A stretch of 64,000 nucleotides of DNA, taken from contig JBHLMI010000008.1 in assembly GCA_048938295.1 (NCBI GenBank), positions 14,082 to 78,081 of the forward strand. The letters run 5' to 3'. A program made the translations under genes and the position numbers. Positions within the stretch are counted from its first letter, which is position 1. The number at the start of each line of letters is the position of its first letter. The notes below the pieces were generated by a model. It had not been told where the DNA came from and ran no database searches. It saw nothing but the letters and a program-made list of their open reading frames with translations. Below are positions 1-54,400 of this stretch, piece by piece. Origin of the DNA: Promethearchaeota archaeon (GTDB lineage: Archaea > Asgardarchaeota > Hermodarchaeia > Hermodarchaeales > Hermodarchaeaceae).

Positions 1-333
1 AGTCCCAATTAGAGAGTTACCTTGACTAACGATATCAACAAGTCCCGCCAACAGATAACCGACACCGAGAAGAATTCCACCAATGGTAGCAACTTTTCGT
101 GGACCGATACGGTCTTGCCATCGACCAGCAAGAATCATAAAAGCTGCAAATGAGGCTAAACCGGCAGCGAATGGTAGTTGTGTCCAAAGTGAAGGCCAAA
201 CGTATATTCCTCCACGTAAAGCCGTTTGGAATATCGACCAAGCATAGATTGAACCTAAACAAACCTGGATAATGAGTGCGCCTAACACGACGAGGTAGCG
301 TCGTGAGCTTCTGATCTCAATATCTTCTGACAT
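1..333 (-). CDS. MFS transporter, N-terminal part (oxalate/formate antiporter-like); continues beyond the window start
   Basis: Own reverse-strand translation from ATG (complement of 331-333): MSEDIEIRSSRRYLVVLGALIIQVCLGSIYAWSIFQ...GILLGVGYLLAG. The hydrophobic 12-TM-type N-terminus and the YAWSIF motif are typical of the OFA family. The frame is open to position 1, which explains why the ORF track does not list it. Confidence 0.55.
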   Translation of the reverse strand, partial: MSEDIEIRSSRRYLVVLGALIIQVCLGSIYAWSIFQTALRGGIYVWPSLWTQLPFAAGLASFAAFMILAGRWQDRIGPRKVATIGGILLGVGYLLAGLVDIVSQGNSLIGT

Positions 334-460
334 TGCAAATCACACTGAGATTCACTATAATGGTGTATGAAGGTAGCTCAGCAAAATTGTAAGACTCAAA
401 TAAGTGTTAGGCACCATCCAGAAAAAACTGAGTAAAAAGCACCTCAATGTGTCCAATGGG

Positions 461-3226
461 CTAACGCTTCGAGTTTAATGAGCTGACAGGAATAATCAGA
501 TGCTTTTCCCGGAGTTGAAAAATCCCATTCAATAATTCAACTGGATTTTCATTCACTGTTTCTATGTATTTGTTCACTATCTCTGAGAGGTAAATATACT
601 CGCGCTGTTTGCTTATCTCAAGAGCAATGAAATGTAATCTACTTTCCAAATTGGTCAATCGGATATCACCGGTTTTTGTTACAACCTCATGAGGAAAGAG
701 AAGTGAAATGTGAAAGATTTCTTCAAGGAGCTCATTAGCATTTTGGAATCGTCTTGGCTCATATCCGTGATTCAGCAATTCATTTTGATAGTCAGTTTCG
801 AATCTTTTTGTGAACAATTCTAGTTTTTGTCGGAGTGTCTCGCTGGGAGTTCCACGATAAACGATGGCGGTTCGGACATGCTGTCCATCATTAATCAATA
901 CGCGGAAACCTTCGTACGTAATTTCAGAGAGCGGAGGATGGTCTTTCGGTCGTTTTTCTTCATTTACGTCAATCGCAAAAGCTTGGATGGCTTGGAGAAA
1001 ACCGCCAATCAATGAACCATCACGGCCTCTCTCTCCCATGGAATCAAAAATGGCTATGCCTGAGCCTCGGTGGAGAACGAGAAATCGCGAGATATTAGTT
1101 ACATCGTTATAAATGGCCAAGACCTCTTCTAGCTTTTTCTCGTGGGCTTCTCGTTTGGGAATGACATACCGTTTACGATAGCCTTTGCTATACGCAAGCC
1201 ATATAGCAATAAGTATAATCAAGAACATAATTCCGTAGATTATGAGTGCGAACTCGGGTCGAAGGCCTGTATTTACTATGACACTGAACTGGATCTCTGA
1301 TCCATCTGCAATAGATGCATTTGCATATCCCCACTTTTGGAACTCGAGTCCAAAGGTGATTTCACTATCTGGATCAAAGGATCCTGGTGAGAAAAGGGTC
1401 TCATATTCACCTCTAGAATTTTGTGTCATCTGAACGATCTGGTTCTGTCCTTGAGGGTTTGAGTAATGTAACTGGACCTGTGCATCAGTAACCGATTCTG
1501 CAGAATGAGTATTTTGGATACTGACCCTGATGTAAAACGAACCCCATCCAACGGCGCTATTCGGAGTAGGATATACGATGGTGATTTGGGCTTGGTTCAC
1601 TATTGTCACTGCTTGTGATGCTAAGCCACATTGGGTCCCTGAAGCATAAGACACAAGCATAGTGGTTTCTTCGCCGGCGACTTCTTCACATTGCACAGGA
1701 ACCTGCCACACCGCACTGGTAACGCGGTTAGAAAGCGGGTCGAATGTTGGAGTATCATCACGGTGACAAATGGTTCCGTTAGGTAACATTATCGAAATTG
1801 ACCCCTGATTTCCGGTCAATGAGATTGTCTCTAAGACTCCGATAACGCGGATATACTCTTCTACGAGGAGATACTCATTGGAGGTTACATTATCCCACGG
1901 GCCAGTTGATGCAACGCTTTTTTGAAGATACACCTCATTTACGTAATTCGTGCTTCTTGCAGAGATTGTGAACCGATCACCTGATAAGGCAATATTTTCA
2001 TCCAAAAGAAAGAAGCTGAACGACTCATTATATGAATAATCATTCACTGTGAAGCCTGCCGTATCATAAACACGTATCAGCTGCCATCCTTCCGGTAAAT
2101 AAAGCCCAAATTGATAACTGGAGATTCCAGGAGGAGGACGTCCGCTAGGAATTGTATAATTTACATTCCATGTAGGGGGTGAATTAACATCGACAGTATA
2201 GCCGGATTGGGCTTCATAGGGGCTCTCACTCTTCATCTTCATCGTGTAATCAAAATCAAATGATATTGAAAATGTGGAGTTGAAAGAAAAGAGTAGGGTT
2301 TTATTCCAGGTATTAAGGAAATCCACTTTTTCTTCTAACACTGGATCAGCAAATATGTCTACTTCACCATTATTGGTAGTTGTGTCTCTAATTGCTGTTC
2401 CATTCAGAGTAAGCGCCACGTCACTGGGAGCTACATCTGATCCAATTTGGTAGTTGAAGTTGTCAAAAAAGATGTGTCCGTCAACATCGAAGTTATTTAT
2501 GGTGGTTTTGAAGATATCGACACTAAGTATTAATGATCCATTAACAGGGACTGAGGGAACGTTCAGCGTAGTCCAGCTAGTGGGATGAAAATCAAGAGTT
2601 GAAGAGATCCAGTTCGTAGCCGTTGAGCCGAGGTTTGTTTTTATACTTACTTCAATAAATAGCCAACTTGCAGCAGTAATGTCCGGCGAAAATCGTATAT
2701 CAAAAAATAGTGTGAGGGAATCTGGTACTAAAGATGACGTATAGTCAAAGGGATTTTCTATCCACGCGTGTCTTTCTAAAAGCAGTTTGCCATAGGCTAA
2801 TTCAATATCCAGACAAGATCCTGGGTTTCCTCCTGATGTGTTAGCAAGTGAACTAATTAGTCCTCCTCCGCTATCAGCCAGGGTCCAATTAGTACCAGGT
2901 TCAGTATATTGTTCGAAATCTCCGTTGGGAACAGGATTAATGGTTGTCCGGACATTCTGAATGTCGGTGTGTAAATGATAACCTCGATAAGAGGTTGGAT
3001 ACCACTCAGAAAGATATGAAAAGGCCGAATCATTGTGGGCATTGAAAAAGTTCGAGCTGTGATTTTGGCCAAATTCATAGACAGTGAGGTTCGTGCCTGC
3101 TCCGATTAATTGAGTCGGTGAAGCAGGAGATGAAATTTGAGCAGAATCAATAGGCGATGTGGGAGTGATGACTAACACACTCACTAGGAGTAGCAAAATG
3201 GCTGAAAGGGTTAGTTTTAGTTTCAA
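461..3226 (-). CDS. large surface protein: signal peptide, ~640-aa N/S/T-rich ectodomain, single TM helix, ~250-aa cytoplasmic tail with a roadblock/LC7/MglB-like domain
   Basis: 921-aa ORF with a TTG start. N-terminus MKLKLTLSAILLLLVSVLVITPTSP is a signal peptide. A TM helix (ALIIYGIMFLIILIAIWLAY) is followed by positively charged residues. The cytoplasmic segment FLVLHRGSGIAIFDS..GSLIGGFLQAIQAFAIDV..ITYEGFRVLINDGQHVRTAIVYRG fits the beta-alpha-beta-beta pattern of the roadblock fold. Confidence 0.6.
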   Translation of the reverse strand: MKLKLTLSAILLLLVSVLVITPTSPIDSAQISSPASPTQLIGAGTNLTVYEFGQNHSSNFFNAHNDSAFSYLSEWYPTSYRGYHLHTDIQNVRTTINPVPNGDFEQYTEPGTNWTLADSGGGLISSLANTSGGNPGSCLDIELAYGKLLLERHAWIENPFDYTSSLVPDSLTLFFDIRFSPDITAASWLFIEVSIKTNLGSTATNWISSTLDFHPTSWTTLNVPSVPVNGSLILSVDIFKTTINNFDVDGHIFFDNFNYQIGSDVAPSDVALTLNGTAIRDTTTNNGEVDIFADPVLEEKVDFLNTWNKTLLFSFNSTFSISFDFDYTMKMKSESPYEAQSGYTVDVNSPPTWNVNYTIPSGRPPPGISSYQFGLYLPEGWQLIRVYDTAGFTVNDYSYNESFSFFLLDENIALSGDRFTISARSTNYVNEVYLQKSVASTGPWDNVTSNEYLLVEEYIRVIGVLETISLTGNQGSISIMLPNGTICHRDDTPTFDPLSNRVTSAVWQVPVQCEEVAGEETTMLVSYASGTQCGLASQAVTIVNQAQITIVYPTPNSAVGWGSFYIRVSIQNTHSAESVTDAQVQLHYSNPQGQNQIVQMTQNSRGEYETLFSPGSFDPDSEITFGLEFQKWGYANASIADGSEIQFSVIVNTGLRPEFALIIYGIMFLIILIAIWLAYSKGYRKRYVIPKREAHEKKLEEVLAIYNDVTNISRFLVLHRGSGIAIFDSMGERGRDGSLIGGFLQAIQAFAIDVNEEKRPKDHPPLSEITYEGFRVLINDGQHVRTAIVYRGTPSETLRQKLELFTKRFETDYQNELLNHGYEPRRFQNANELLEEIFHISLLFPHEVVTKTGDIRLTNLESRLHFIALEISKQREYIYLSEIVNKYIETVNENPVELLNGIFQLREKHLIIPVSSLNSKR

Positions 3227-3416: not shown

Positions 3417-3818
3417 GTGTTAGTCATTTTGAGTGAAGAAGCCTATATTCTCGAGTTCTGTCGCCGGTGGCTCCCTGCCTGGACCGGCAATCAACCTGAA
3501 TTATTGTTACAGTTTTACACAGAAAATGCATTTTACGCAGATCCTGCACATCCTGAGGGAATACAAGGGCAAGACAAGTTAAGAGAGTATTTCACGAAGC
3601 TATTGAAATCCAACCCAAATTGGGTGTGGGAGCCTGTTGAGGTGTTTCCTACTCGGTATGGTTTCACTCTGAAGTGGCGGGCTTTGATTCCGGTGGGAAA
3701 GAAGAAGATAGTTGAGCATGGTATGGATATTGTGGAACTCGATGACGGGAAAATCAGCCGCAATGAGGTATATTTCGACCGGAGTCGTTGGCTTGAGGCA
3801 CTTCCAAAGAAGAAGTAA
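3417..3818 (+). CDS. SnoaL/NTF2-like (ketosteroid-isomerase-like) small protein
   Basis: 133-aa ORF with a GTG start preceded by GACGGGG. Residue pattern (..FYTENAFYADPAHPEG..WVWEPVEVF..) resembles SnoaL-like polyketide cyclase / NTF2-fold proteins. Confidence 0.4.
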   Translation: MLVILSEEAYILEFCRRWLPAWTGNQPELLLQFYTENAFYADPAHPEGIQGQDKLREYFTKLLKSNPNWVWEPVEVFPTRYGFTLKWRALIPVGKKKIVEHGMDIVELDDGKISRNEVYFDRSRWLEALPKKK

Positions 3819-4003: not shown

Positions 4004-4537
4004 GTGGCGGACATATCCTCACCAAAACGATGGATATTCAAAGTTATTCTCATGGGTGATTATGCTGTCGGTAAAACTTGCATTATTCGACGGTATGTAT
4101 CAGACACCTTCATCGAGGATTACAAGGCAAGTATTGGTGTGGATATTACATCTCAAGAACTCGACTATAAAGACGATCTTGTGCAATTACAACTTTGGGA
4201 CATGAGTGGACAAACAGATTTCAAACTTGTCCGTAAACAATTCATGAGTGGCACAGACATTGGTATCATTGTCTTTGATTTGACGCGGCCAAGCAGTCTG
4301 TTAAACGTGGAAAGATGGATTAACGAAATTCATGTGATGCTACCTGAGCTACCTCTTGTGCTGGTGGGTAACAAATCTGATCTCTCCAATGAACGGCAAA
4401 TTTCCCGAGAAACGGCTGAGAAGACAGTGAAAAAGTTTGATATGCTTTTTTATTCTGAAACTTCAGCAAAATCTGGGGACAATATTACGCAGCTATTCAA
4501 GGATGTGACCAAGCGGTTAATGGCGGATATGAAATAG
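4004..4537 (+). CDS. Ras/Rab-family small GTPase
   Basis: GTG start with GAGGT 9 nt upstream. All G-box motifs are present: G1 GDYAVGKT, G3 WDMSGQ, G4 GNKSDL, G5 ETSAK. Length is 177 aa. Confidence 0.85.
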   Translation: MADISSPKRWIFKVILMGDYAVGKTCIIRRYVSDTFIEDYKASIGVDITSQELDYKDDLVQLQLWDMSGQTDFKLVRKQFMSGTDIGIIVFDLTRPSSLLNVERWINEIHVMLPELPLVLVGNKSDLSNERQISRETAEKTVKKFDMLFYSETSAKSGDNITQLFKDVTKRLMADMK

Positions 4538-4569
4538 GAAAGGGAATGTAAACAAGGGGGGAATAGGCA

Positions 4570-5487
4570 ATGCCCCAAGGGGCAGCGTTATTAGAATTCG
4601 ACCAGAAAATGGGACCTATCTTCAAAGTTGCTATTCCTAACACACTTGAAGTTACCCAGGATGAAACGATTGTTCTCTTCACCACGCGAACTAAGATGGA
4701 CGAAGGATTTACCAGTTTGAAGGTTAAAGACCGAAACTGGGTAACTTATCTGAATCCTCCTTATCTTTACTGTATCTTGCTTACACCCGCTGAACATCAA
4801 AACGACTTCGAAATACCCATGACAGAAGTACTCAATAATTTCCAACCAAATAATAGGGTTTCCACAGAGGTTCTTAATGAACTGTATGATGATATCGTTT
4901 CCCGTATTGGTGATGGTTTACGAAGACGTTTATCAGAACAACTAATAGTTCAAAAGCTTCTCGCATTCATTCGGGAATCACAAGAAGCGTTGCGACCTTC
5001 CTGGTCAATAAAGACTGGGTATCATTACCCCAGGGCTGAAAGCATCACCGGTGAATCACCTGAAGATACAAACGCGCTGCTTGGTGTTATGATGACAGCG
5101 GGATTACTCTATGGGCGAATCTGTGGAAATATTGCAATCTGCCCCCAATGCTCAAATCCTAAAATCGGACTGCACGCAAGTTGTCCGAAATGTGGGTTAC
5201 CAACTCTTGAAGCAGGCATAGCTATTGAGCATTTTACTTGTGAATATACGGCGTTCATCGAGAAGTTTTCGACATCCCAGGGTCTCGTCTGTCCTCAATG
5301 TCATGCTTTGTTATCGACTGGCACTTATCGATCTTTAGGTCGCGTCTACCATTGTGTCACTTGCAAAAGCTATCCTCCTTCTGTAGAGCCTATGTTCGGC
5401 TGTCTGACATGTCAATTTACTTTTACAGCAAATGAGGCGAAATATTTACCTGTATATTGTTTCACCATAGCTGAAGAGACAGAATAG
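4570..5487 (+). CDS. GTPase-associated protein: N-terminal alpha/beta (possibly roadblock/longin-like) domain plus four CxxC zinc-ribbon pairs
   Basis: 305-aa ORF starting 33 nt after the GTPase stop (operon). C-terminal half carries CPQC..CPKC, CPQC..CVTC, CLTC Cys pairs. N-terminal ~120 aa shows alternating beta/alpha propensity. Confidence 0.6.
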   Translation: MPQGAALLEFDQKMGPIFKVAIPNTLEVTQDETIVLFTTRTKMDEGFTSLKVKDRNWVTYLNPPYLYCILLTPAEHQNDFEIPMTEVLNNFQPNNRVSTEVLNELYDDIVSRIGDGLRRRLSEQLIVQKLLAFIRESQEALRPSWSIKTGYHYPRAESITGESPEDTNALLGVMMTAGLLYGRICGNIAICPQCSNPKIGLHASCPKCGLPTLEAGIAIEHFTCEYTAFIEKFSTSQGLVCPQCHALLSTGTYRSLGRVYHCVTCKSYPPSVEPMFGCLTCQFTFTANEAKYLPVYCFTIAEETE

Positions 5488-23110: not shown

Positions 23111-26100
23111 ATGTCTTCATACGAGCGAGACCCAAATACCGTCAACGGTGACGACGAGCCACGGTTTCGACTCTTTTTTGAAAATGCGCCCCTCTATTGT
23201 TATATGGTTTCACCTCAGGGAATCATTCTGGACATTAACAAAGCTGCTCTCAAGGTGTTAGGTTACACACGAACAGAACTAATTGGCAAACACATTCGCT
23301 CTATCTACGCACCAGAATGTGAGGATAAGGCTAAAGATCTGTTTATTTCGTGGGAGAATGAGGGTACAATTACTGATGAAGAGCTCATTATCCAAACTAA
23401 AACTGGTGAACAGCGTATCGTTCTCTTAAATGCGAACGCGATTCACGAATCTGATGGATCCTTAGCCTATTCGATTTCGATTCAGCAAGATATCACTGAG
23501 TTAAGACAAAAGAAAGATGAGCTCAAGGAAAGCCAAAATGCTTTGAAAAAATCTGAAAAGGAAAAATCTGTGATTCTGGATAATATTTCAGAACACGTTA
23601 TCTTTCAAGATTTGGAGAACCACATCATTTGGGCTAACCGTGCTGCTGCTGAATCGGTGAACAGCAGTGTAGAGGAACTTGTTGGTAAAAACTGCTATGA
23701 AGTGTGGAACCAGCGAGATACACCCTGTATTGAGTGCCCTATCGTCATGGCTAGGGAAACCGGTGTTATTCAAGAACATGAGATGCGTACACCTAACGGT
23801 CGTGTATGGCATGTGCGTGGGTATCCACTTTATGATGAGAGTGACACTTTAATCGGTTGTGTTGAGGTCACTCGTGACATCACAGAGCGAACGAGGGTTG
23901 AAGAAGCGTATCACAAACTTGTTGATCAATCAATTCAAGGTCTATTAATTATCCAAAATGGAAAGGTCGCCTTCGCGAATCCAGCGTTTCTCCGAATAAG
24001 TGGCTATACAGAGGAAGAAGTCTTAGCCTTTAGTCCCTGGCAGATATTTGATATCATTCATCCGGATGATCGGAATGTTCCCTGGGAACAGCTGCAGAAA
24101 ATCATACAGGGCGAACCGGTTTCAACTACCATGGAGTTGCGTGGAATTCTAAAGGATGGTACCGAACGCTGGTTTGAACTTTCATTAGCTGTTATCGAAT
24201 ACCAAGGTCAACTGTCAACGCAAGTAACGATTATGGATATCGACGAGCGTAAAATGATTGAAGAAGCAATCCGACTCGAAAGGGATTGGGCTCAACGGTA
24301 TTTGGACATGGCAGGGGTCATGTTCATTGCTGTTGATACAAAAGGGAATATCACTTTAGTTAATCAAAAGGCCCTCGAGATTTTTGGATACTCAGAAGAG
24401 GAAATGATAGAACAGAACTACTTCGATTTGTGTATACCTGAGTCATTACGTGCTGAAATGAAAGGGAAATTCCGCGCTAACATGGCTGGAGAAATTGAAC
24501 CACGTGCTTTTGTTGAGAACCCAATCATTACCAAAGACGGCGCAGAAAGACTCGTATCATGGCACACCACTATGTTCTATGATCCCTCCGGAAATCCGAT
24601 TGGTGCCCTAACAGCAGGAGAAGACATAACTGAACGCAGATTTGCAGAGAATCTACTACGAAAAGAAAGGGATCGAGCTCAACAATACTTGGATATGGCA
24701 GGCGCTGCATTTATCGGAGTGGATAGGAATCAAAATATTTTTCTCGTTAATAGAAAAGGCTGCGAGATTTTTAGCTACTCAGAAGCTGAACTTTATGGTC
24801 AGAATTACTTCGACTTATGCATCCCTGAAAGACTTCGTGAGGAAATGAAAGACCGATTTGAACGGGCCATGGTAGGAACATTTCAGTTAAGCGAATATGT
24901 TGAAAATCCTATTAAGACTAAACAAGGCACCGAGCGGATGATTCTTTGGCATACTACTGTACTTGAAGATGAGGAAGGAAATAAAACAGGGATCCTGAGT
25001 TCTGGAGAAGACATTACGGAAAGAAAATTTGCAGAAGAAGCTCTGCGCGCCTCAGAGGAAAAATTCCGTTCTCTTGTAGAGGACACCACGGATTGGGTAT
25101 GGGAAATTAACCGTGAAGGAAGACTTGTCTATTCAAACAGTGCAGTTGAAGACATACTCGGCTATACTGCTGGACAAATCATTGGGAGATCCTTCTTCGA
25201 TTATATGGATTCTACAAGTGTAGAAAATGGTGAAGTTATGTTCACTGAAACGGTTGAAAAGCAGAAACCGTTTAAGAATCTCGTGGATCGCTTCATTCAC
25301 CGAGATGGTAACATTGTGATTCTGGAAGGCAGTGGTCGACCAGTCTTTGATGAGCAGCAACATTTAATCGGTTATCGAGGGGTATGCCGTGACATCACGG
25401 AACGTATGCGGGCTGACCAAATCCTCCGAGAATCCGAATCTCGGTATCGCTCCTTAGTTGAGACATCTCCTGACGCTATTACGCTTACGAATCCAGATGG
25501 AATGATTGTCTTAGTCAATGAACGCGCTGTTCAATTGTTGGGCTTTAATAATCCTGGTGAACTGAGAGGCAGGAATTGCTTTGATTTCATCGTCCCCGAA
25601 GAGCGAAACCGGGCCATTGAAACTTTGAAAAGCACCAAAGAGCATGGACCGTCAGTTCCCCTTCTCTTCAATCTCATTCAAAAAGATGGTAAGATTTTTC
25701 CAGCGGAGATCAGTGCCTCACTTCTCATTGGAGCAGCGGGTAAGGCATCAGGATATATTATTGTTGCTCGTAACATCACTGAACGCAAACAAGCCGAACA
25801 AGCCTTGAGAGAGGCTAAAGCGCGGTCAGAGTTCTTCACAGACCTGATGGCCCACGACCTCAACAATATCAACCAGGCTATCCTCTCTGGAATAGAGTTA
25901 CAGCTGATGAATCCAGAGCTCCCAGAAGAGCTACGTACACAACTTCAGTTATCCTTAGAGCAAGTGGAACGAAGTGCGGCTTTAATTGGACGTGTCAAGA
26001 AATTCTCAGGGATGGATGAAGTTCAAACCCTTATGGACATTCGCGACATAGAACCTGACTTTCGTTCTGCCTTAGAAGCAGTCAAGCAGGCTTTTCCCAA

Positions 26101-26503
26101 GAAGACTATCCTCGTTGATACCAACATTCATCCTGAAGAATTCAAAGTCTTAGCAGATGACTTCCTTGTGGATTTATTTTACAATCTCCTACACAACGCG
26201 GTGAAATTTGATCACAATGAAAAAGTCGACCTTGAAGTGAAAATCTATCCTGACACGAATAAACGTTTCCTCCGTGTAGAAATCAGCGATCATGGTCCAG
26301 GAATCCCGGGTGACTTGAAAGAGCGGATTTTTGCCCGGTACACACAAAAGGTGGGTGAGAAAGCTCAGGGATCCGGTATCGGCTTAACACTTGTTCAACG
26401 CATCATCGATCGATTTGGAGGTCAAATCTGGGTCGAAGATCGGGTCAAGGATACCTATACCCAAGGTGCAAAATTCATTTTTCTCCTCCCAATGTGGACG
26501 TGA
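23111..26503 (+). CDS. soluble multi-PAS (about 7 PAS) sensor histidine kinase
   Basis: 1130 aa with no TM segment. Repeated PAS/PAC blocks. H-box LMAHDLNNINQAI. ATPase G-boxes ..DHGPGIP.. and GSGIGLTLVQRIID. Confidence 0.9.
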   Translation: MSSYERDPNTVNGDDEPRFRLFFENAPLYCYMVSPQGIILDINKAALKVLGYTRTELIGKHIRSIYAPECEDKAKDLFISWENEGTITDEELIIQTKTGEQRIVLLNANAIHESDGSLAYSISIQQDITELRQKKDELKESQNALKKSEKEKSVILDNISEHVIFQDLENHIIWANRAAAESVNSSVEELVGKNCYEVWNQRDTPCIECPIVMARETGVIQEHEMRTPNGRVWHVRGYPLYDESDTLIGCVEVTRDITERTRVEEAYHKLVDQSIQGLLIIQNGKVAFANPAFLRISGYTEEEVLAFSPWQIFDIIHPDDRNVPWEQLQKIIQGEPVSTTMELRGILKDGTERWFELSLAVIEYQGQLSTQVTIMDIDERKMIEEAIRLERDWAQRYLDMAGVMFIAVDTKGNITLVNQKALEIFGYSEEEMIEQNYFDLCIPESLRAEMKGKFRANMAGEIEPRAFVENPIITKDGAERLVSWHTTMFYDPSGNPIGALTAGEDITERRFAENLLRKERDRAQQYLDMAGAAFIGVDRNQNIFLVNRKGCEIFSYSEAELYGQNYFDLCIPERLREEMKDRFERAMVGTFQLSEYVENPIKTKQGTERMILWHTTVLEDEEGNKTGILSSGEDITERKFAEEALRASEEKFRSLVEDTTDWVWEINREGRLVYSNSAVEDILGYTAGQIIGRSFFDYMDSTSVENGEVMFTETVEKQKPFKNLVDRFIHRDGNIVILEGSGRPVFDEQQHLIGYRGVCRDITERMRADQILRESESRYRSLVETSPDAITLTNPDGMIVLVNERAVQLLGFNNPGELRGRNCFDFIVPEERNRAIETLKSTKEHGPSVPLLFNLIQKDGKIFPAEISASLLIGAAGKASGYIIVARNITERKQAEQALREAKARSEFFTDLMAHDLNNINQAILSGIELQLMNPELPEELRTQLQLSLEQVERSAALIGRVKKFSGMDEVQTLMDIRDIEPDFRSALEAVKQAFPKKTILVDTNIHPEEFKVLADDFLVDLFYNLLHNAVKFDHNEKVDLEVKIYPDTNKRFLRVEISDHGPGIPGDLKERIFARYTQKVGEKAQGSGIGLTLVQRIIDRFGGQIWVEDRVKDTYTQGAKFIFLLPMWT
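24275..25051 (+). repeat. tandem duplication of a ~129-aa PAS module inside the histidine kinase
   Basis: Residues 389-517 (ERDWAQRYLDMAGVMFIAVD...GEDITERRFAENLLRK) and 519-647 (ERDRAQQYLDMAGAAFIGVD...GEDITERKFAEEALRA) are about 50% identical and directly adjacent. Confidence 0.6.
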
Positions 26504-29883: not shown

Positions 29884-30423
29884 ATGCGCCCCCAAAGCAG
29901 CCGTTACATGTTCAAGGTTTCGGTAATTGGCGATTACGCCGTGGGAAAAACCTCCCTAATTAAACGTTATATGACGGATTCCTTTGATGAAGGGTATAAA
30001 GCAACTCTTGGCGCTGCTATTTCCTCGTTCCAAACCAGCGTAAAGGGATCTGATGTCGCGCTGCAAGTTTGGGATCTAGCAGGCCAAACCTCCTTCCGTA
30101 GAGTTCGGGTACAATATCTATTCGGCACTGATTTCGCGATCGTGGTATTCGATTTAACAAGAAAAGATTCTTTGGACTGTGTTAAAGAATGGGTGAGTGA
30201 TGTAAGGCAGGGTGCGCCTGAAGTACTCCTATTCCTTGTTGGTAATAAGGCAGATTTGAAGGAAGATCGAGTGGTGAACCCTGTGGCTGCTGAGAAAGTC
30301 GGAAAAAGTTTGAATATGCTTGGCTACCTTGAGACCTCCGCAAAGGAAGGAACCAATGTCAAAGAACTCTTTCACATCATTTCCGAATACCTCTTAGAAC
30401 ATACATTCACTGTAATAAAATGA
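29884..30423 (+). CDS. Ras/Rab-family small GTPase
   Basis: G1 GDYAVGKTS, G3 WDLAGQ, G4 GNKADL, G5 ETSAKEG. 179 aa. Its stop overlaps the next start (ATGA). Confidence 0.85.
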   Translation: MRPQSSRYMFKVSVIGDYAVGKTSLIKRYMTDSFDEGYKATLGAAISSFQTSVKGSDVALQVWDLAGQTSFRRVRVQYLFGTDFAIVVFDLTRKDSLDCVKEWVSDVRQGAPEVLLFLVGNKADLKEDRVVNPVAAEKVGKSLNMLGYLETSAKEGTNVKELFHIISEYLLEHTFTVIK

Positions 30424-31898
30424 CAAAAAAGGTGCTCGAACGCGTGACACTCCCAAGGGAAATCACTGAATTCCTGAACGAGGAACAGGGACAAACTCTA
30501 CTCATCAAAGGAAAATCAGGAACTGGAAAATCCACACTAGCCTTATCCTTACTTGGTCATCTAGCCGAGACCCTACCTAAGAAATTCAGTGTTGAAAACT
30601 TTGTGTACCTTTCAACGCGTGTTGCAAGCTCGAGTCTGAAATCCCAATTTCCTTGGGCGTTTCAATTGCTTTCAGAAAATCAAATCATCGATGCGACACC
30701 ATCGCTCATGGGGCTTCCTGAAACCACCTTAGCGTGTGGGGAGTCATCTAACAATCGGATGGTGTACTCCGATGAGTTGACGTTCATTAGCGCAGTAAAT
30801 GATCGATTGCGGAACTTGACCAATCCTGTGTGTGTCATTGACTCATTTGATGCGATTATCGAAGCCGCGCAAGCTGACCCCCAGCGCCTGACAAGCGCAT
30901 TAACGAATCTTGGTCGCATCCTATGCGGTAAAATCATTCTTATTGTCGAAGGTATTGAGGAGTCGACGTTAGATCATATAGTCGATGGTATTGTATGCGT
31001 CACTAAGGAATTCACGGCAGAGCGGATGTGGCGTAGTCTTCGGCTAATCAAGCTCCGTGGTACGCCAATTGATCAAAGTATGCGAGGATTTTCTCTTCGG
31101 GGGAGTCGTTTTACCATTTTGCATTCATTTGATGCAGAACAAGCCAACCGCGTATCAGATTTCGAGGTCATCGCCCACTCTGGTGGTCGATTTTCGTCAG
31201 GAGTCCCAGAACTAGATACGGTTTTTGGCGGTTTCAGACGAGGAAGCACATTCTTCATTGATGTCGCCGAAGGCGTCGCCAACGAAACGGTTCACAGTCT
31301 AATCTTCAGCATGGTGGCGAACTTCCTACGCCAAGACAGCGGTGTTGTCATTGTTCCACCAAACAAACTGAGCTTCCGGCGACTCAAAGCAGCCTCACTT
31401 CGCTACGGATTTGTCGACCAACTCAACACACGCCTCCGCTTCTTCGCAAGTGCAGCGACTAGCCTAGGCGTTTCTAGTGCAACTGGAGAACTTGGTGAAC
31501 CATATTACAAAACCGTGGCATTCCGTGAAAGCTCTGATCTTGAGAATGCTTGGAGTATGGTGGTAGAAGAACTCAGAAATCAAGGGTGCAAAAACTTACT
31601 AAGCGTAGTAGGCTTTGGTTGGTTGCATTCATGGTTAGGCCCAACCGAATTACCACGTTGGGCTACGCGGATTGCCAATGATACCGCTACGGAAAGTAAC
31701 CTAGCAGTCACCATAGGCTATAGCAGTACAAAGGATATAAACCGATATCTGGCAGATTTAGCAGACATTCACGTTCAGTTAGCAGTAAAGGAAGGAGTCA
31801 CAGTCTTTCATGGAATCAATCCCTCGACTCCTCAATACTGCATCTACACACACCTTGTGGAGGGAAACCCACAAATTGGCTTCCAAGAAATCGGATAA
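30420..31898 (+). CDS. tandem KaiC-like protein (active N-domain plus degenerate C-domain)
   Basis: N-domain has Walker A GKSGTGKST. C-domain keeps the KaiC-like loop GVPELDTVFGGFRRGSTFFI but lacks GKT/S, so it is a pseudo-ATPase. Confidence 0.65.
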   Translation: MTKKVLERVTLPREITEFLNEEQGQTLLIKGKSGTGKSTLALSLLGHLAETLPKKFSVENFVYLSTRVASSSLKSQFPWAFQLLSENQIIDATPSLMGLPETTLACGESSNNRMVYSDELTFISAVNDRLRNLTNPVCVIDSFDAIIEAAQADPQRLTSALTNLGRILCGKIILIVEGIEESTLDHIVDGIVCVTKEFTAERMWRSLRLIKLRGTPIDQSMRGFSLRGSRFTILHSFDAEQANRVSDFEVIAHSGGRFSSGVPELDTVFGGFRRGSTFFIDVAEGVANETVHSLIFSMVANFLRQDSGVVIVPPNKLSFRRLKAASLRYGFVDQLNTRLRFFASAATSLGVSSATGELGEPYYKTVAFRESSDLENAWSMVVEELRNQGCKNLLSVVGFGWLHSWLGPTELPRWATRIANDTATESNLAVTIGYSSTKDINRYLADLADIHVQLAVKEGVTVFHGINPSTPQYCIYTHLVEGNPQIGFQEIG

Positions 31899-32256
31899 GA
31901 TTCGCATCCTATTAGCAGATGATTCACCACACTTTCTCCGTTCAGCTCAGCTACTCCTTCGTGACTATGATATTGAAACTGCACTTGATGGGGAAGAGGC
32001 TCTCGCTAAACTTAAGGCTAATCCACCAGACATCTTCTTCGTGGACCTAGTACTGCCAAAAATTCGGGGTACCGACCTCATTCGCCTAGTCTCAAAGGAG
32101 TACCCTGACATTGCCATTGTCGCTTTGACTGCTATCGATGATCATGAAACTGTACAAGAAGTCATGGATTTAGGTGCAAAAGGTTATCTGATTAAGCCTG
32201 TATCATCGGATACCTTCAAGACAGAAATCAAGAAACATACCGAGTCTAGCGATTAA
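31876..32256 (+). CDS. stand-alone CheY-like response-regulator receiver
   Basis: IRILLADDSP (acidic pair), FVDLVLP (phospho-acceptor Asp), ALTA (Thr), KGYLIKP (Lys). Start is uncertain: TTG 31876 overlaps the upstream stop. The ORF track's 31810 start would overlap by 89 nt. Confidence 0.65.
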   Translation: MASKKSDKIRILLADDSPHFLRSAQLLLRDYDIETALDGEEALAKLKANPPDIFFVDLVLPKIRGTDLIRLVSKEYPDIAIVALTAIDDHETVQEVMDLGAKGYLIKPVSSDTFKTEIKKHTESSD

Positions 32257-40404: not shown

Positions 40405-42318
40405 ATGGCATTTAAGGTGTGGGAGATATTGTCTAATAATCGCGGCTTACTTATCCTAGCATTTGTTTTTGCTTTTCTTTTAATTAATATATCAACACCT
40501 GCTCAAGTACCTGTGTTGGCTGAGAATTTTGAATTGAAACAGCCCGATTTTGGAAACGAACTGATAGCGTTTATTAGCCAAGTGAAAATGCAAAACGGAA
40601 ATGATAACTGGACAGTTCTTGTATATCTTGATGGAGATAACAATCTAGAGGAGTACGCGTTCGATGATTTGAATTCAATGGAGACAATTGGATCAACTCA
40701 AGATGTGAAAATTATTGTACTAGTTGATTTTTGGGATGGAACCTATACACCTTTTACAGGCGCAAAATGCTACGAAGTCAGCCAAGATTTGAATCAAAAC
40801 GTTATTAACTCAATCGAACTTGCTACACCACTACCCACGGAACCGGATATGGGTTCTCCCACTATTCTCCGAGATTTCATCGTGTTTGGTCAATCGTACG
40901 CTCCTGCTGACAATTATCTGCTGATTATTTGGGATCACGGGAGTGGGGCGTTTGGCTTGTGTGAAGATGAAACTAGTCAGTCTCAATTAACGATTGAGGA
41001 GTTGGAGCAAGCGCTCAGTGATTCACAAATTCAACATCTAGATATCGTGGCCTTTGATGCTTGCTTGATGGGGCAACTAGAGGTCGCTTACGAAATCCGT
41101 AATAGTACGGATTTAGTGGTGTTCTCGGAAGAATCAGTACCTGTGACGGGATTTCCATATGAAGATATACTACTTAACCTCACGACGTTTCCAACCTCAA
41201 CACCCAAAACTGTAGCATCCAGTCTTGTCTATTATTATGTAACGGCCTACGATATTGGTGGACGGTACTATGACCCTATGAACCTTGCTGTGTGTCTGTC
41301 CGCGATCGAATGCGATATGCTTGATGCAGTTGCTGAGGCATTGAATGAACTTGCACAGTTACTTTATACTAGTGTCAACGACCCCCAGCTCTATGAGGCG
41401 ATATCTTGGGCACGGGAAAGTACACAAAGTTTCTCATGGACTGAATTCATTGACTTGGACTCCTTCGCTTCAGCGCTTGCCACTCACCTTAATACTAATC
41501 CGTACTTTCAACGAGCCACCAATTTGTCCTCTTTCATCCAAGCAGCCGTTTACGAGGAACTACATCTAAGTGACGTTCCTGGTGCTCATGGGCTAGGCGC
41601 TGTGTTTGGTACTTATGGGTCTCATCAACTCGCTCTTGCCACCGATACAGAATGGGATGAATTCATTGAGGCATATCTGAATATCGGCGCATCATTTACT
41701 GAAGCTTGTCCACTCGTGCAATATCAAGGCCCAGGAGCTATTTTGGGTCTGCACTGTGGATATCTTGAAGGCGCTTATGATTCTGTATATTATATCTACA
41801 CTGCAACAGAAACAGGTCTGCATACCTTTACCATTGATGCAGCCTGGACCCAATTTGAAACTGACTTTGACCTCTACATCTACAATGCCTACCAAGGCCA
41901 ACTAGCTGAGTCGATCAGCAGTGACTCGTCAGAAACCATCACCATTAATCTGAGCGAAGGTAACACCTACTATATTGAGGTGTATTCGTATCCAACGGGC
42001 GATCTTAGTGCCGGTATCTTTCTACTCCAAGTTTTCACCCCCTCAAGTACTGGTCCTGCCTTTCCAATACCTCCCCTAACCATGATCATGTTAATCGCAG
42101 GTATCGTCGTCGGTATCCTTGTTGGCGTTATCACCATCATTATCTACCGACGAAGACAAACCAGCAGTACCGAACCCCCGTCCCGCTACACTGCCACAAC
42201 ATACATGCCCGGTTCAGCACCATCAACCACCGAAAGCACGAAATTCTGCGCCTATTGCGGTGGAGCAATCCCATCCCGTGCCCACTACTGCCCCATTTGC
42301 GGTTCCTCACTGGATTGA
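40405..42318 (+). CDS. secreted clostripain-like (C11) cysteine peptidase with C-terminal TM and cytoplasmic zinc-ribbon tail
   Basis: Signal-anchor at the N-terminus. WTVLVYLDGDNNLE, catalytic His in LIIWDHGSGAFG, catalytic Cys in DIVAFDACLMG. C-terminal TM LTMIMLIAGIVVGILVGVITIII, then CAYCGG..HYCPICG. Confidence 0.6.
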   Translation: MAFKVWEILSNNRGLLILAFVFAFLLINISTPAQVPVLAENFELKQPDFGNELIAFISQVKMQNGNDNWTVLVYLDGDNNLEEYAFDDLNSMETIGSTQDVKIIVLVDFWDGTYTPFTGAKCYEVSQDLNQNVINSIELATPLPTEPDMGSPTILRDFIVFGQSYAPADNYLLIIWDHGSGAFGLCEDETSQSQLTIEELEQALSDSQIQHLDIVAFDACLMGQLEVAYEIRNSTDLVVFSEESVPVTGFPYEDILLNLTTFPTSTPKTVASSLVYYYVTAYDIGGRYYDPMNLAVCLSAIECDMLDAVAEALNELAQLLYTSVNDPQLYEAISWARESTQSFSWTEFIDLDSFASALATHLNTNPYFQRATNLSSFIQAAVYEELHLSDVPGAHGLGAVFGTYGSHQLALATDTEWDEFIEAYLNIGASFTEACPLVQYQGPGAILGLHCGYLEGAYDSVYYIYTATETGLHTFTIDAAWTQFETDFDLYIYNAYQGQLAESISSDSSETITINLSEGNTYYIEVYSYPTGDLSAGIFLLQVFTPSSTGPAFPIPPLTMIMLIAGIVVGILVGVITIIIYRRRQTSSTEPPSRYTATTYMPGSAPSTTESTKFCAYCGGAIPSRAHYCPICGSSLD

Positions 42319-42434
42319 ATCCCACACCCAACCCTCCTTCCCCGAATATCCGTGTCACCTCAGACCACAGTAGGATACAAAAACTTCCCGAAAACTCTGA
42401 CACAAACGCTGTTCTTTTGCATCCCAGTTGCCGA

Positions 42435-42443
42435 CTTTAAGTA
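42435..42443 (+). promoter_or_regulatory. TATA-like box (CTTTAAGTA) about 30 nt upstream of the polB-like ATG
   Basis: Archaeal TATA consensus-like element with the expected spacing for a leaderless transcript. Confidence 0.25.
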
Positions 42444-42472
42444 GGGTGCTGAGAGAGCCGTCCTGACCAACA

Positions 42473-44680
42473 ATGCGTGGCTGGATCCTCGACGTAACTC
42501 CCCGGTCCGACCACTTGGTCCTGTGGTTGCGCACGGCAGCAAAATGCATTCCCTTGGAAATACCTTATCAGCCACAATTCTACTTACACGCACCTGGCGT
42601 CCAATTCGAGAACTATGCGCCGCTGTTCGAGAATCACCCACTGGTATGCGCTGTGACCCCGGCGTTTCGTCGGCTGCAATTGCGAGGCGCGCGACGACCG
42701 GTTCTCGCCGTAACAGTCTCCTCCTGCACCCAACTCTCCCGAGTCGTTCACGAAATCAAAACCCTCGCTGTCCCCCGTTTTCGCGTCTTCAACGGCGATC
42801 TCTCCGCAACCCAGCTCTGGTACCTCGAGCAACGGCGCTTCCCCTTCGAGCAGGTGGAGGTCCACACCGACCAGTCGGGGTCCCGTGTTACCCACATCGA
42901 CTCCTGCGACTCCCGGTGGGCCCTCGACTACGAACTGCCGTCCTTTGATACTGTGGACCTCCACCTAGAAGGAGAAGACCTGTTCTGTGCCACCAGCACC
43001 TCTGGTGAGACGTTGCAGACCACAGAGCCCATGATGCTCCAGGATTGGATTAACATTCAAGATCCGGACATCATCTTCACCGAAGACGGCGACTACCGCA
43101 TCTTTCCTACTCTCATTCGACGCGTCCAAGAGGAGGGGATGTTGCACCAGTTTTCGTTGAGTCGGGACCAGACTCCCCATGTCTTCAGTGACAAGACTCT
43201 GCCTGCAGGTCGTGCTGTCTTCCGGTATGGCGGCCCAGTCTTTTATCGTCCACACCCCTTTCTGCTCCATGGACGTTTGCATCTGGACCGATCACACATG
43301 ACCTTCGGTAACTTCGACGGACTCATCGAATCAAGTCGAATTACCGCCTTTCCGCCCCAGCGTATGGCGCGAAGCAGCCCGGGCACCGGTATCAATATGC
43401 TCCAGATGCAAGAGGCACTCAACCGTGGTGTCCTGATTCCCGAAACCAAAGCCGACCCAGAAGAGTACAAGACCGGGCTTGAACTCCTCAACGCTGACCG
43501 GGGTGGCCACGTCATCACCCCGCGTGTTGGCATCTTCAGTGAAGTCGGCGAACTCGACTTCCTGTCCATGTATCCGTCGCTGATGGTCAAGTATAACATC
43601 TCGCCGGAAGCCTTGTTCTGCGACTGTTGCCCCGAGGACGCCACTGTGGTGCCCGAGATAGGCTATTGGTTATGTCGGCGCCAGCGCGGCATTGTCCCTA
43701 CCTTCCTTGAACCTATTCTCAAGAAACGAATCTACTACAAGCGACACCGCCATGATGACCCTATATACGAGGCGCGGCAAGCCGCGTTGAAATGGCTCCT
43801 CGTCGTCTCCTTTGGTTACCTCGGGTTTCGAGCCTCACGATTTGGTCGCGTCGAAGCCTATGAATGTGTCACAGCCTTCAGTCGACGGGTCCTGCTGCAG
43901 ACCAAAGCCGTCTGTGAACGCAAAGGCTTTGATGTGCTCCATGGCATCGTGGACTGCGTCTGGCTGCAGAAGCCCGGCGCCACTGTCGAAGACTACCTGA
44001 CCGCCGGCGAAGCCGTTGAGGAAGTGACCGGACTACCGATAGAATTTGAAGGCCGCTATCGGTGGATTATGTTCTTGCCTTGTCGCAATCAACCCTACGG
44101 CGCGCTGACACGCTACTGCGGAGTAAAACACGATGGTACCATTAAAGCCCGAGGCATTGAACTGCGACGCCGTGATACTCCACCGTTCATCAAGCAACTC
44201 CAGATGGACCTCCTCACTTGTCTGGCGGGAGCTGAAGACACTGATGAGATGCAGCAACTGCTCCCGCAATTGCTCGATATCGTCAAAGACTATCTTGACC
44301 TTTTGCACAGCGGTGGAATGACAACGGAGGACCTCATCATCACTCAACGCATCAGCCGATCCCCCCACGAATACCAGCAGCAGTGCAGCCAGGCCATTGC
44401 CGCTGAACTCGCCATCCGATACGGGCAAGACATCCAGCCAGGACAAGCCATTAAGTACGTGCACACCGACTCCACGTCTCGTCATCCATTGCGCCGTGTC
44501 GCGCTCCCCCACACCGCAGCAGCAGTCCACTATGACAAGGACAAATACACCGAGCTGCTGCTCCGCGCCGCCGATACCCTCCTGACACCCCTCGGTTGGA
44601 ATTACGAGCGGCTCACACAATACTTCAGCGATAAACCAGTCCAAACCTTGCTGGACTCTCATATTCGAGTGCGAAAGTAG
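42473..44680 (+). CDS. family-B DNA polymerase paralog (GC-rich; degenerate exonuclease motifs and degenerate motif C)
   Basis: N-terminus MRGWILDVTP.. resembles archaeal PolB N-termini. Pol motif A LDFLSMYPSLM, motif B KWLLVVSFGYLGF, KxY-region KARGIELRRRDTP. Motif C position reads VLHGIVDCVWL instead of YxDTDS. Exo I position is HLE instead of DxE; Exo II is DGDYRIFPTL. GC content of the ORF is about 58%, against roughly 40-45% in surrounding genes. Confidence 0.7.
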   Translation: MRGWILDVTPRSDHLVLWLRTAAKCIPLEIPYQPQFYLHAPGVQFENYAPLFENHPLVCAVTPAFRRLQLRGARRPVLAVTVSSCTQLSRVVHEIKTLAVPRFRVFNGDLSATQLWYLEQRRFPFEQVEVHTDQSGSRVTHIDSCDSRWALDYELPSFDTVDLHLEGEDLFCATSTSGETLQTTEPMMLQDWINIQDPDIIFTEDGDYRIFPTLIRRVQEEGMLHQFSLSRDQTPHVFSDKTLPAGRAVFRYGGPVFYRPHPFLLHGRLHLDRSHMTFGNFDGLIESSRITAFPPQRMARSSPGTGINMLQMQEALNRGVLIPETKADPEEYKTGLELLNADRGGHVITPRVGIFSEVGELDFLSMYPSLMVKYNISPEALFCDCCPEDATVVPEIGYWLCRRQRGIVPTFLEPILKKRIYYKRHRHDDPIYEARQAALKWLLVVSFGYLGFRASRFGRVEAYECVTAFSRRVLLQTKAVCERKGFDVLHGIVDCVWLQKPGATVEDYLTAGEAVEEVTGLPIEFEGRYRWIMFLPCRNQPYGALTRYCGVKHDGTIKARGIELRRRDTPPFIKQLQMDLLTCLAGAEDTDEMQQLLPQLLDIVKDYLDLLHSGGMTTEDLIITQRISRSPHEYQQQCSQAIAAELAIRYGQDIQPGQAIKYVHTDSTSRHPLRRVALPHTAAAVHYDKDKYTELLLRAADTLLTPLGWNYERLTQYFSDKPVQTLLDSHIRVRK

Positions 44681-51409: not shown

Positions 51410-54400
51410 CTAGGGGCTGTCCGTGAAGCGGACATCCTCACAAGTCGGGCACCCAGCATACAACACCTGCAGTCCTTCCAGGGATCCATCACGGAACACG
51501 GTGATGCCCTTCAACCCCAACTCATCCGCCAACAAGAATACCCGACGAATATCCTCCGTCGAAGCGTTGTTAGGCACATTAACGGTTTTGCTTACTGCAT
51601 TGTCTGTGTGTTTCTGGAAGGCTGCTTGCACGCGCACATGCCATTCAGGATCGATTTCATGAGCAGTTTTGAACAAGCGCTTGATATCGTCTGGTACACC
51701 TTCCACGTCCTGTACAGATCCCGTCGATGCCACTTCCTGCTCAACAGCTTCACACCAGAAGCCACGTTCTTCAGCAATTTCGACGAAGTATCTGTTTGTA
51801 TCCGTCAAGCGGACACCTTCAGTGAGTACCCGATCATGCACAATAGCAAACAAAGGTTCAATCCCACTACTGGTCCCCGCAATCAAGCTAATACTCCCAG
51901 TAGGGGCAATCGTGATTAGCGTTGCATTCCGCTTCCATTTCCGACGCTGCTTCAATAAATCAATGTGCTCGAAGTTACCCCGCACCTTCGCCAGTTCCGC
52001 TGACGCCCGCTCCGCACGATTCCGAATGAACTCCATCACCTGTTCCGCTAATTCCAAGGCTTTCTCGGAATCGTATGGAATCCGCAGCTGAATGAGCATC
52101 TCCGTCCAGCCCATAATCCCAAGCCCAATCTTCCGCGTGGCTTTGGTCTGAATGGCAATCTCTTCCACCGGATACTTATTCAAATCAATAATATTATCCA
52201 AGAACCGCACCGCCAACGGAATAATTTCACCCAACCGCTTCCAATTCACCTCACCATCCTCCACTAGGCGGGATAAGTTGATGCTACCTAACACGCACGA
52301 CTCGTAAGGCAAAAGTGGTTGCTCACCACAATTTGAAACAATGATTCCTGATAGTTTTTTGTTCCCCTTTTTGCTTTCATACTCTCTAGTTATCGTGGCA
52401 AAATTATGATAGTCATCTACCGTGATGTTATAGACATCGGAGATTCCACAATCTTGAACCGAAGCAACTCGATGATTCAATTCAGCAATGGCAGGTTTGT
52501 TTAATGCCCTATAGGTATTGGAACAACCTCTTGAACAACATACCTGTGGTTTTGATTTGATATACTCAATTCGCGTACCACAAACCGGACACTCGCCTTC
52601 CAAATTACTATCTTTCCACCTTTCTTTCGCAGCTATGCTTATTTTCTCCCGAATTTCTTGATCAGCCATTACTTCATTCATTCTTTCTCGGAAAATCTTG
52701 CTAAACTTCTTGTCAGAGAATCTTCTTCGGGTTGATTCACTAATTTTTACTCTTGTTTCATACGAGTGAATTCTGCCGAACATACCATTGTCTTCACCAG
52801 ATCTCCCAACAGCCAGGTGTTCCTTAATCCAATCCTCTGGCATACGATGATAGGGATTGTTAGATCCAAGCATATCTCGTCGATGAAGCTTTCTGTGCTC
52901 ATGGGATGTCATAATTTGAATATTTGCCCATGAATTATCCAATGTATCATAGTTTATGTGATGAACAACCTCACTTCGCTTTAATTTCCGTCCAAGCATA
53001 AATTCTGCAATTATTTTATGCTCTCCACGATGAAACACATTCTGATTTTGATGAATATGCCAATACTTGCTTTTCTTACCTCGTTGTCTGTATTGAATCT
53101 TGAAAAATGGCATTATTCGATCCCCCTCCTTCAGGCTGCCTGCTTCAACATAAGAACCGTCCCTTAGCATCACTCTATGGTTTTTAGTGAGTTTGAGAGA
53201 ACTATTATCATCAAAAGTAACTTCAACAATTGGAACTTGTTCTCTTGTTTTTCTTGGATTTCGACCCATTCTGACAACCATCCCATCGCCTGACCAACAA
53301 AAGACTGGAACACCTCTACCCTCTCGGGCAAGGTCCTCAATTGACACATAATTTCTCCCATCAGCGACGGCAATAAGCGTATCACCAGAAACACACGGAT
53401 TCGTTGATTCTATTTGTTTGCCTTTGAGGGGGTGTTCGTCGTTAATGCGATCGATGAAGATCATGCCGGGGTCCCCGGTGTTCCAGGCGTTCAGGATCAT
53501 AGAGTCGAAGATCATGCGAGCACTGATGGTTTGCTCGACTTCACCGGTGTGAGGGTTGATCAAGTCGATGTTCCCACCGGTTTTCAAGGCATGCATGAAC
53601 TCGTGGGTGACGGCGACGGAGATGTTGAAGTTACGGAAGGATTTCTTGTCGGCTTTCGCACTAATGAACTCCATGATATCCGGATGATCACACCGCAAGA
53701 TAGCCATGTTCGCACCGCGTCGCTTGCCTCCTTGTTTAATAACATCGGTAGCAGTATCATAGATGCGCATGAAGGAGACTGGACCGCTGGCGACTCCACC
53801 TGTAGATCCGACTGTTGTACCCTTTGGTCGGAGCTGAGAAAAAGAGAATCCCGTATTGTGTACTACCACAAGATGGCCATTTCCTGCTAGATAATTCTGG
53901 TTTATCGGAACAGAGAAGTCATAAAGAGTGGCACTTTCCCCTTTAATTTCTACATCTTTTACCTGAATTCTACGAAAACTGAATGGCTTATGTTTGCTTA
54001 GTCGGGGTTTCCGTTCGGTCGGGAATAAACGTCCATAGCCTGTTGAGAAAGCAATTTCCCATCCTGTGGATCGAATACCAAAACGGGTTCTATCTCGTCT
54101 TCTAACCTTGTAATTTATTCCGATCATTGCGAGGAGGCTGGAGAGAAAGTCCTTTAGTGAGTCTGATGATGTGTAAAGACTTATCACATCTCGACCAAAG
54201 TAGCCATCTCCGTCTAATAGCCCAGCAATAAAAGAAAATGGTGCACCAGGTATGAATTGAGGAGTTAGCTTATCTTCCCCAACGATTTCGTATAAATGAT
54301 AAATGAATGAATCTTTCTTTTTGGTAGTGGTTTTTAGAATATAGCAATTTTCTCTTGGATCTTTTTGTAGCTTCAATCGGCGTGTGTTTCTATACTTTGC

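Follow-up and report, generated by a model that had tools for sequence, protein, structure and literature searches.

An apparently undescribed family of Asgard surface proteins with a predicted roadblock/longin-fold domain anchored at the inner membrane face

Near the start of the window analyzed here, a 64-kb stretch of contig JBHLMI010000008.1 from a Promethearchaeota archaeon (assembly GCA_048938295.1), lies a gene for a 921-aa receptor-like protein, flanked by genes for a transporter of the MFS type, a SnoaL/NTF2-like protein, and a Ras-family GTPase (Table 1). A hydropathy scan of the whole protein revealed two hydrophobic segments only, a signal-peptide-like N-terminus (residues 1-29) that is conserved among full-length orthologues (alignment A4), and a transmembrane (TM) helix at residues 659-680. 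The ~630-aa ectodomain between them is rich in Ser (11.3%), Thr (9.5%), and Asn (7.2%; 28% for the three together) and poor in Lys (1.7%) and Arg (2.3%; 4% together), while the 241-aa tail contains 5.1% Lys, 7.7% Arg (13% together), and 11.1% Glu. The TM helix is followed by the basic stretch KGYRKRYVIPKREAHEKK, in agreement with the positive-inside rule. This pattern of hydropathy and composition is that of a type-I (N-out, C-in) single-pass surface protein, the tail of which is predicted to lie in the cytoplasm and not outside the cell. The initial annotation of this DNA had claimed a signal peptide, a large N/S/T-rich ectodomain, and one TM helix with a cytoplasmic tail, all of which are borne out; the tail, which it put at ~250 aa, is present but is 241 aa long and, beyond the roadblock-fold domain, contains another that is winged-helix-like.

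Orthologues of the ectodomain, 44-77% identical, occur in Thor-/Hermod-like Asgard metagenome-assembled genomes (MAGs), and no significant match to it was found in Pfam, NCBIfam, or PDB sequences. It contains 14 N-X-S/T sequons, compared with ~9 expected from its composition and a single one in the tail; this excess is modest and mostly reflects the N/S/T richness of the ectodomain, for which glycosylation, predicted from the sequons, is plausible. The profile of orthologues (A4) gave a sole echo among PDB sequences, at residues ~615-705 of the window protein and to the calf-2/TM/GFFKR region of integrin alpha-V (E-value 0.38, not significant), which probably reflects the composition of a TM helix with a basic flank.

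The tail was modeled with AF2 using an alignment (A2) of 51 sequences of the module formed by the TM helix and the tail, including distant relatives from an exhaustive profile search; this run replaced an earlier one on nine close homologues that had given a predicted local distance difference test score (pLDDT) of 49 and no usable fold. In the resulting model (pLDDT 90.4; predicted TM-score, pTM, 0.84), elements in the order alpha-beta-beta-alpha-beta-beta-beta-alpha build a five-stranded sheet of the roadblock-type fold. The first helix (682-711), with Pro690 near the membrane and alpha1 of the fold itself at ~692-711, is succeeded by strands 712-719 and 725-728, a central helix (737-755), and strands 766-771, 774-780, and 784-791, after which come helices 796-812 and 814-820 and a helical linker whose proline P845 is invariant in the 51-sequence alignment. 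Foldseek searches with the tail model returned the longin domain of Sec22b at the top (E 6e-4), consistent with a roadblock/longin fold. Structural neighbors, with the figure obtained for each in brackets, included Trs23 (11.6), synbindin (11.4), the VAMP7 longin domain (11.3), Mon1 (11.2), Ccz1 (11.2), Asgard Roadblock3 (11.1), a Lokiarchaeal longin protein (10.7), a Thor roadblock protein (10.0), and MglB (10.0), and extended to the SRX domain of SR-alpha, the small subunits of AP and COPI, LAMTOR proteins, and the C-terminal domains of Rag GTPases. From this model, we are confident in assigning the tail domain to the roadblock/longin fold. The same fold had been read into the tail by the initial annotation, from segments that in the predicted domain fall on strands 1-2, the central helix, and strands 3-5, and structure prediction did not yield a different one.

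Judged by sequence, the tail domain is a member of no known family. The whole protein is without a match in Pfam, NCBIfam, or PDB sequences, and the module profile found none among PDB sequences at E<=10. Robl_LC7 (PF03259) gave 0 matches at E<=1 for the window protein and the 51 module sequences; one of the 51 matched Sybindin weakly (E 1.2e-3), and none matched the other longin-type families (Longin, Sedlin, Clat_adaptor_s, NPR2). When the module profile was compared by hhalign with seven bona fide Robl_LC7 proteins the probability was 0.1%, against 89% for a positive control pairing Robl with the N-terminus of a roadblock-GTPase protein.

The second domain of the tail raises the possibility of a membrane-tethered transcription regulator, following a ToxR/CadC-like logic with reversed polarity, in which a winged helix would bind DNA upon an extracellular cue. 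The last ~60 aa have a winged-helix-like secondary structure, and one source labels a fragment as 'predicted DNA-binding protein'. However, the putative recognition helix (helix 3) is not basic, with a family mean charge of -0.3 (the domain as a whole has a median isoelectric point of 8.3 across the family), and no helix-turn-helix family from Pfam or NCBIfam was detected among the 51 module sequences, such that DNA binding by this domain is unlikely. More than 1000 clusters bearing giant ectodomains are also a poor fit to a dedicated regulator, and we consider this explanation extremely improbable. A Foldseek search with the C-terminal domain of the nine-homologue model returned noise only.

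The exhaustive profile search, in which counts refer to representatives of 50%-identity clusters, yielded 1085 representatives with the TM-plus-tail module at E<=1e-3, of which 581 remained at E<=1e-10 and 98 at E<=1e-30; word-indexed homologue searches had recovered few relatives of the tail. Architecture was surveyed in 176 retrieved members with a complete module, nearly all of which carry one TM helix directly before it. Many possess an N-terminal hydrophobic segment, the remainder being largely truncated at the N-terminus, and the region N-terminal to the module is highly variable, in proteins of up to 3025 aa. On its C-terminal side the protein either stops within ~20 aa or continues into a conserved helical extension of ~197 aa (sometimes ~395 aa), which is absent from the window protein. 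The module itself is marked by the conserved motifs D..NL, LVLHK.SG, D..LISGFL.AISSF, Y..F.IL..DG...R.ALVL, PS..L...L..F...FE..Y, and F..SL..PH, and Arg785 and Glu810 are near-invariant. Ectodomains are mostly unannotated, one paralogue (P0046) having FG-GAP and Ig-like repeats. The invariant unit of the family starts with a TM helix and a basic juxtamembrane stretch, continues into the roadblock/longin-fold domain, and ends, beyond a helical linker, in a winged-helix-like domain; the extracellular part in front of it is freely interchangeable. The ~197-aa extension (P0053, P0055, P0067, and ~45 others) displays repeated motifs of the type 'y.eAi..Y..A..iA' that are TPR/MIT-like and without a Pfam match; extensions of ~395 aa are two copies of it.

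All members with organism names belong to Asgard archaea (Thor-, Hermod-, Odin-, Loki-, Hod-, Hel-, and Promethearchaeota, and Ca. Harpocratesius), and they include both cultured Lokiarchaeia, Promethearchaeum syntrophicum MK-D1 and Ca. Lokiarchaeum ossiferum. Three short contigs with members that were binned into bacterial or Bathyarchaeota MAGs are probably mis-binned. As far as named records show, the family is apparently restricted to Asgard archaea. No description of the TM-anchored roadblock/longin architecture or of the sequence family was found in Pfam-A (2025), NCBIfam 20, PDB sequences, or the full-text literature searched, an absence that is not proof of novelty, and the family may already carry a number among the Asgard clusters of orthologous genes (asCOGs). 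Thus, while the fold is known, the membrane-anchored architecture is real and apparently undescribed.

Tandem pairs of ~1950-aa paralogues occur in two lineages (L036 1746-13937; L041 8001-19858). They were considered as an ancient alpha/beta heterodimer pair, which was ruled out by 56% identity within a pair versus 30% between pairs, values that indicate recent independent duplications. At L001 6701-8951, a 421-aa open reading frame lies 35 bp upstream of the 316-aa homologue P0005 in the same orientation, and a frameshift or stop may have divided a single full-length family gene into these two.

In the window, the receptor-like gene had been described as divergent from the GTPase operon at a distance of 800 bp. 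The distance holds, the GTPase start lying 777 bp from that of the receptor-like gene, but the two are not directly divergent since a SnoaL-like reading frame lies between them. The GTPase at 4004 has no roadblock partner domain. Its operon partner is without a Pfam match over residues 1-127, N-terminal to the TackOD1 domain; by eye, the N-terminal ~125 aa have the pattern of another small alpha/beta (longin-like?) domain. On the other side, ~125 bp downstream of the receptor-like gene, an MFS gene begins in the same orientation. Three orthologous Thor-like loci share a common order of amino-acid kinase, ~280-aa protein, GTPase, SnoaL, receptor, and MFS, with the divergent SnoaL gene and the downstream MFS gene as the conserved immediate partners of the receptor. 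A ~570-aa protein with faint matches to BNR (sialidase-like) repeats is a recurrent immediate neighbor of the Thor orthologues (L002 5074-6792, L003 9887-11590, and the P0014 contig), and is absent beside the window gene.

Table 1. The receptor-like gene with its protein domains, its neighbors in the window, and roadblock-GTPase fusion genes at related loci
Feature	Sequence	Position	Strand	Remarks
Receptor-like gene	Window	461..3226	-	921-aa open reading frame, TTG start
Signal-peptide-like N-terminus, residues 1-29	Window	3140..3226	-	Sec-like by hydropathy; basic MKLK head, L/V core LTLSAILLLLVSVLVI, polar end TPTSPIDSA
Extracellular domain, residues 30-658	Window	1253..3139	-	N/S/T-rich, K/R-poor, 14 sequons
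Single TM helix, residues 659-680	Window	1187..1252	-	FALIIYGIMFLIILIAIWLAYS; Kyte-Doolittle maximum 2.9
Basic juxtamembrane stretch with conserved Pro690, then predicted roadblock/longin-fold domain, residues 681-820	Window	767..1186	-	
Short helical linker, residues 821-855	Window	662..766	-	Conserved F..A..L.E..F..SL..PH motif
Winged-helix-like C-terminal domain, residues 856-916	Window	479..661	-	Helix, short strand, helix, helix, strand in the secondary structure of the model; not basic
MFS-transporter gene (5' part, cut by window edge)	Window	1..339	-	Clusters with MFS_1 genes of L002 and L003
SnoaL/NTF2-like gene, true divergent neighbor	Window	3417..3818	+	Pfam SnoaL_2, E 8e-13; between receptor-like gene and GTPase gene
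Ras-family small GTPase, 177 aa, GTPase domain only	Window	4004..4537	+	Pfam Ras, E 9.5e-47
GTPase operon partner, TackOD1 zinc-ribbon output domain (residues 126-299)	Window	4570..5487	+	Pfam TackOD1, E 6e-23
Roadblock-GTPase fusion	L004	6076-7113		
Roadblock-GTPase fusion	L017	4243-5274		
Roadblock-GTPase fusion	L006	4339-5445	-	
Roadblock-GTPase fusion	L012	4376-5494	-	

The MFS gene invites the explanation that the window protein is an extracellular substrate-binding or sensing subunit for the downstream transporter, with a tail that regulates transport. An MFS_1 gene lies 120-130 bp downstream of the receptor in two of the orthologous loci, on the same strand as in the window, and within 1.9 kb in the third, and the BNR-repeat protein is also a recurrent neighbor. 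However, this pairing is seen in one closely related orthologue group only, where conserved gene order may account for it, and other family members have unrelated neighbors. We therefore regard a transporter partnership as very improbable.

What the tail does may be approached through the established roles of its fold. MglB is a GTPase-activating protein, Ragulator anchors the Rag GTPases, TRAPP and Mon1-Ccz1 serve as platforms for guanine nucleotide exchange, and SRX binds SR-beta. By analogy, the tail would act at the inner membrane face as a docking and dimerization platform, and binding by the ectodomain outside would be coupled through the TM helix to a cytosolic partner of the tail. Small GTPases or soluble roadblock/longin proteins would be the most probable class of partner. 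We tentatively prefer this reading, of a membrane-tethered docking and dimerization platform whose partner is most probably a small GTPase or a soluble roadblock/longin protein carrying one, while rating it as somewhat short of probable. As a general logic for the family, a membrane-tethered roadblock platform for GTPases is a reasonable hypothesis. In Asgard archaea, 130 roadblock-superfamily and 94 GTPase asCOGs have been recognized (Liu et al., bioRxiv 10.1101/2020.10.19.343400).

Gene context across the family bears on this reading from both sides. Taking all loci together, Ras GTPases are ~7-fold denser in the 0-2 kb upstream of family members (5 in 41.8 kb) than in the remaining ~296 kb (also 5). 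Within one Lokiarchaeial subfamily, the available sequence extends far enough upstream at nine loci, four of which encode a roadblock-GTPase fusion ~1 kb upstream of the receptor, in two orientations (Table 1). This subfamily shares a housekeeping block comprising P-type ATPase, ATP-grasp, receptor, RadA, Robl_LC7, a 412-aa protein, and aspartokinase; the alignment used for the locus survey employed one peptide pattern and gave this single Lokiarchaeial orthologue group, which limits the neighborhood statistics. The fusions, of 344-373 aa, combine an N-terminal roadblock domain with a C-terminal Rab-like GTPase and come from MK-D1, Ca. Harpocratesius, and two MAGs; the MK-D1 paralogue next to such a fusion is found at NZ_CP042905.2, 3659120-3679554. 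An HTH-Ras fusion was found at 4.7 kb in one of six further paralogue loci.

Several points weigh against the docking-platform reading. The upstream enrichment derives from only three synteny groups and may thus represent inherited gene order and not function, and six other paralogue loci contain no Ras GTPase within 4 kb. In the three Thor-like loci, saccharopine-dehydrogenase and FGGY-kinase genes (sometimes with a BNR-repeat gene) stand between GTPase and receptor, placing the GTPase 3.6-5.7 kb away. With no detectable similarity of the tail to roadblock or longin sequences, inheritance of function from these proteins is uncertain, and the winged-helix-like assignment of residues 856-916 was made from secondary structure alone. 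Gene context thus neither establishes nor excludes a GTPase link for the family.

A narrower proposal, advanced in the initial annotation, is that the window protein is the receptor of the adjoining operon (4004-5487), forming a local signaling pair in which its tail binds or regulates the Ras-like GTPase. The short distance between the two gene starts, the presence of the same GTPase to the corresponding side of the receptor at the three orthologous Thor-like loci, and a tail fold that is that of known GTPase regulators are all in keeping with such a pair. However, the SnoaL-like gene intervenes, the inserted metabolic genes hold the GTPase at a distance in the orthologous loci, and GTPase 4004 offers no roadblock domain for pairing. 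The proximity in the window arises because the saccharopine-dehydrogenase/FGGY-kinase cassette is absent, and with three Ras GTPases in 64 kb, one falling within ~1 kb is not rare by chance. Pairing of the window protein with GTPase 4004 is not supported by gene context, this GTPase is not a supported candidate for its partner, and a local pair appears distinctly improbable.

A different role for the tail would be that of a sorting or positioning device, passing variable surface adhesins to the cytoskeleton, ESCRT, or a coat-like adaptor for placement or turnover on the cell body and its protrusions, much as coats recognize the longin domains in Sec22b and VAMP7. The structural similarity to these domains notwithstanding, no adaptor-type partner was identified and no ESCRT or actin genes occurred in the loci examined, and we see this as a possible, though rather unlikely, alternative to the docking platform. 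The most far-reaching version of the platform reading would make the family a dedicated Asgard system for outside-in signaling or trafficking, with hundreds of different ectodomains each connected by one TM helix to a shared roadblock/longin platform, at which small GTPases would be recruited to the plasma membrane or switched there, and its members would be the 'complex surface proteins' on Lokiarchaeial cells. Such a system would represent a prokaryotic forerunner of receptor-to-GTPase logic of a Ragulator-like or integrin-like kind; we think it unlikely.

Elsewhere, the window encodes two further Ras-family GTPases. Directly after the second (179 aa) come genes for a 492-aa GvpD/KaiC-like P-loop ATPase and for a response-regulator receiver protein (29884-32256, + strand), and the three may constitute a GTPase-ATPase-two-component cassette. 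The third (57812-58807, - strand) is a 331-aa protein with a GTPase domain at residues 9-167 and ~160 C-terminal aa without a family match. At 23111-26503 (+ strand) lies a gene for a 1130-aa histidine kinase that has seven PAS domains, and a ribonucleotide reductase large subunit at 51410-55543 (- strand) is interrupted at two places by intein-like sequences, of which one contains a LAGLIDADG domain and the other an HNH endonuclease domain. A segment at 42001-44680, with a G+C content of 55.6% versus ~45% elsewhere and a reading frame for a 735-aa family-B DNA polymerase, may be of foreign or mobile origin. Scanning the window against Rfam gave no match.

Among the eukaryote-like proteins credited to Asgard archaea are roadblock and longin domains, hitherto discussed as small soluble proteins or GTPase fusions. 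The family described here comprises more than 1000 clusters, overlooked by Pfam and NCBIfam, in which the predicted fold is built into a membrane protein, on the cytosolic side and beneath a variety of surface domains. If the partner of the tail were a GTPase or trafficking factor, this would provide a testable link between the Asgard cell surface and the expanded GTPase and trafficking toolkit. Since members are present in MK-D1 and Ca. L. ossiferum, experiments are possible.

Comparison with known systems places the tail among familiar folds in an unfamiliar setting. The tail domain has no sequence-level similarity to MglB and the 'RB' class of roadblock proteins (MglB, LAMTOR2, Asgard Thor-RB, and MKD1-RB; PMC10933270), from which it also differs in its place within a longer protein, with a large ectodomain and a TM helix before it and a winged-helix-like domain after it. 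Longin domains, including those of TRAPP (Trs23, Bet5, synbindin), Mon1-Ccz1, and the SNAREs Sec22b, VAMP7, and Ykt6, are without the N-terminal helix; longin-SNAREs, moreover, have no ectodomain and are tail-anchored, their longin domain forming the N-terminal end, unlike the window protein. Integrin-type adhesion receptors provide a functional analogy only: in both, a large ectodomain of modular build (with FG-GAP and Ig-like repeats in paralogue P0046) is joined by one TM helix and a basic juxtamembrane stretch to an adaptor-recruiting cytosolic part; integrin tails, however, are short peptides whereas the tail of the window protein consists of folded domains. With Ragulator (LAMTOR1-5), the membrane anchor of the Rag GTPases, the differences are that it is held by a lipid anchor via LAMTOR1, consists of small, soluble heterodimers of roadblock proteins, and pairs with RagA/C through the C-terminal roadblock domains of the latter, whereas the window protein is anchored by the TM helix of a surface protein and its neighboring GTPase (177 aa, Ras only) lacks a roadblock domain. 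The likeness is that both hold a platform of roadblock fold against a membrane on its cytosolic side, which is the logic put forward in the initial annotation; in the window protein it is fixed there by a TM helix (659-680) that directly precedes the predicted roadblock-fold domain.

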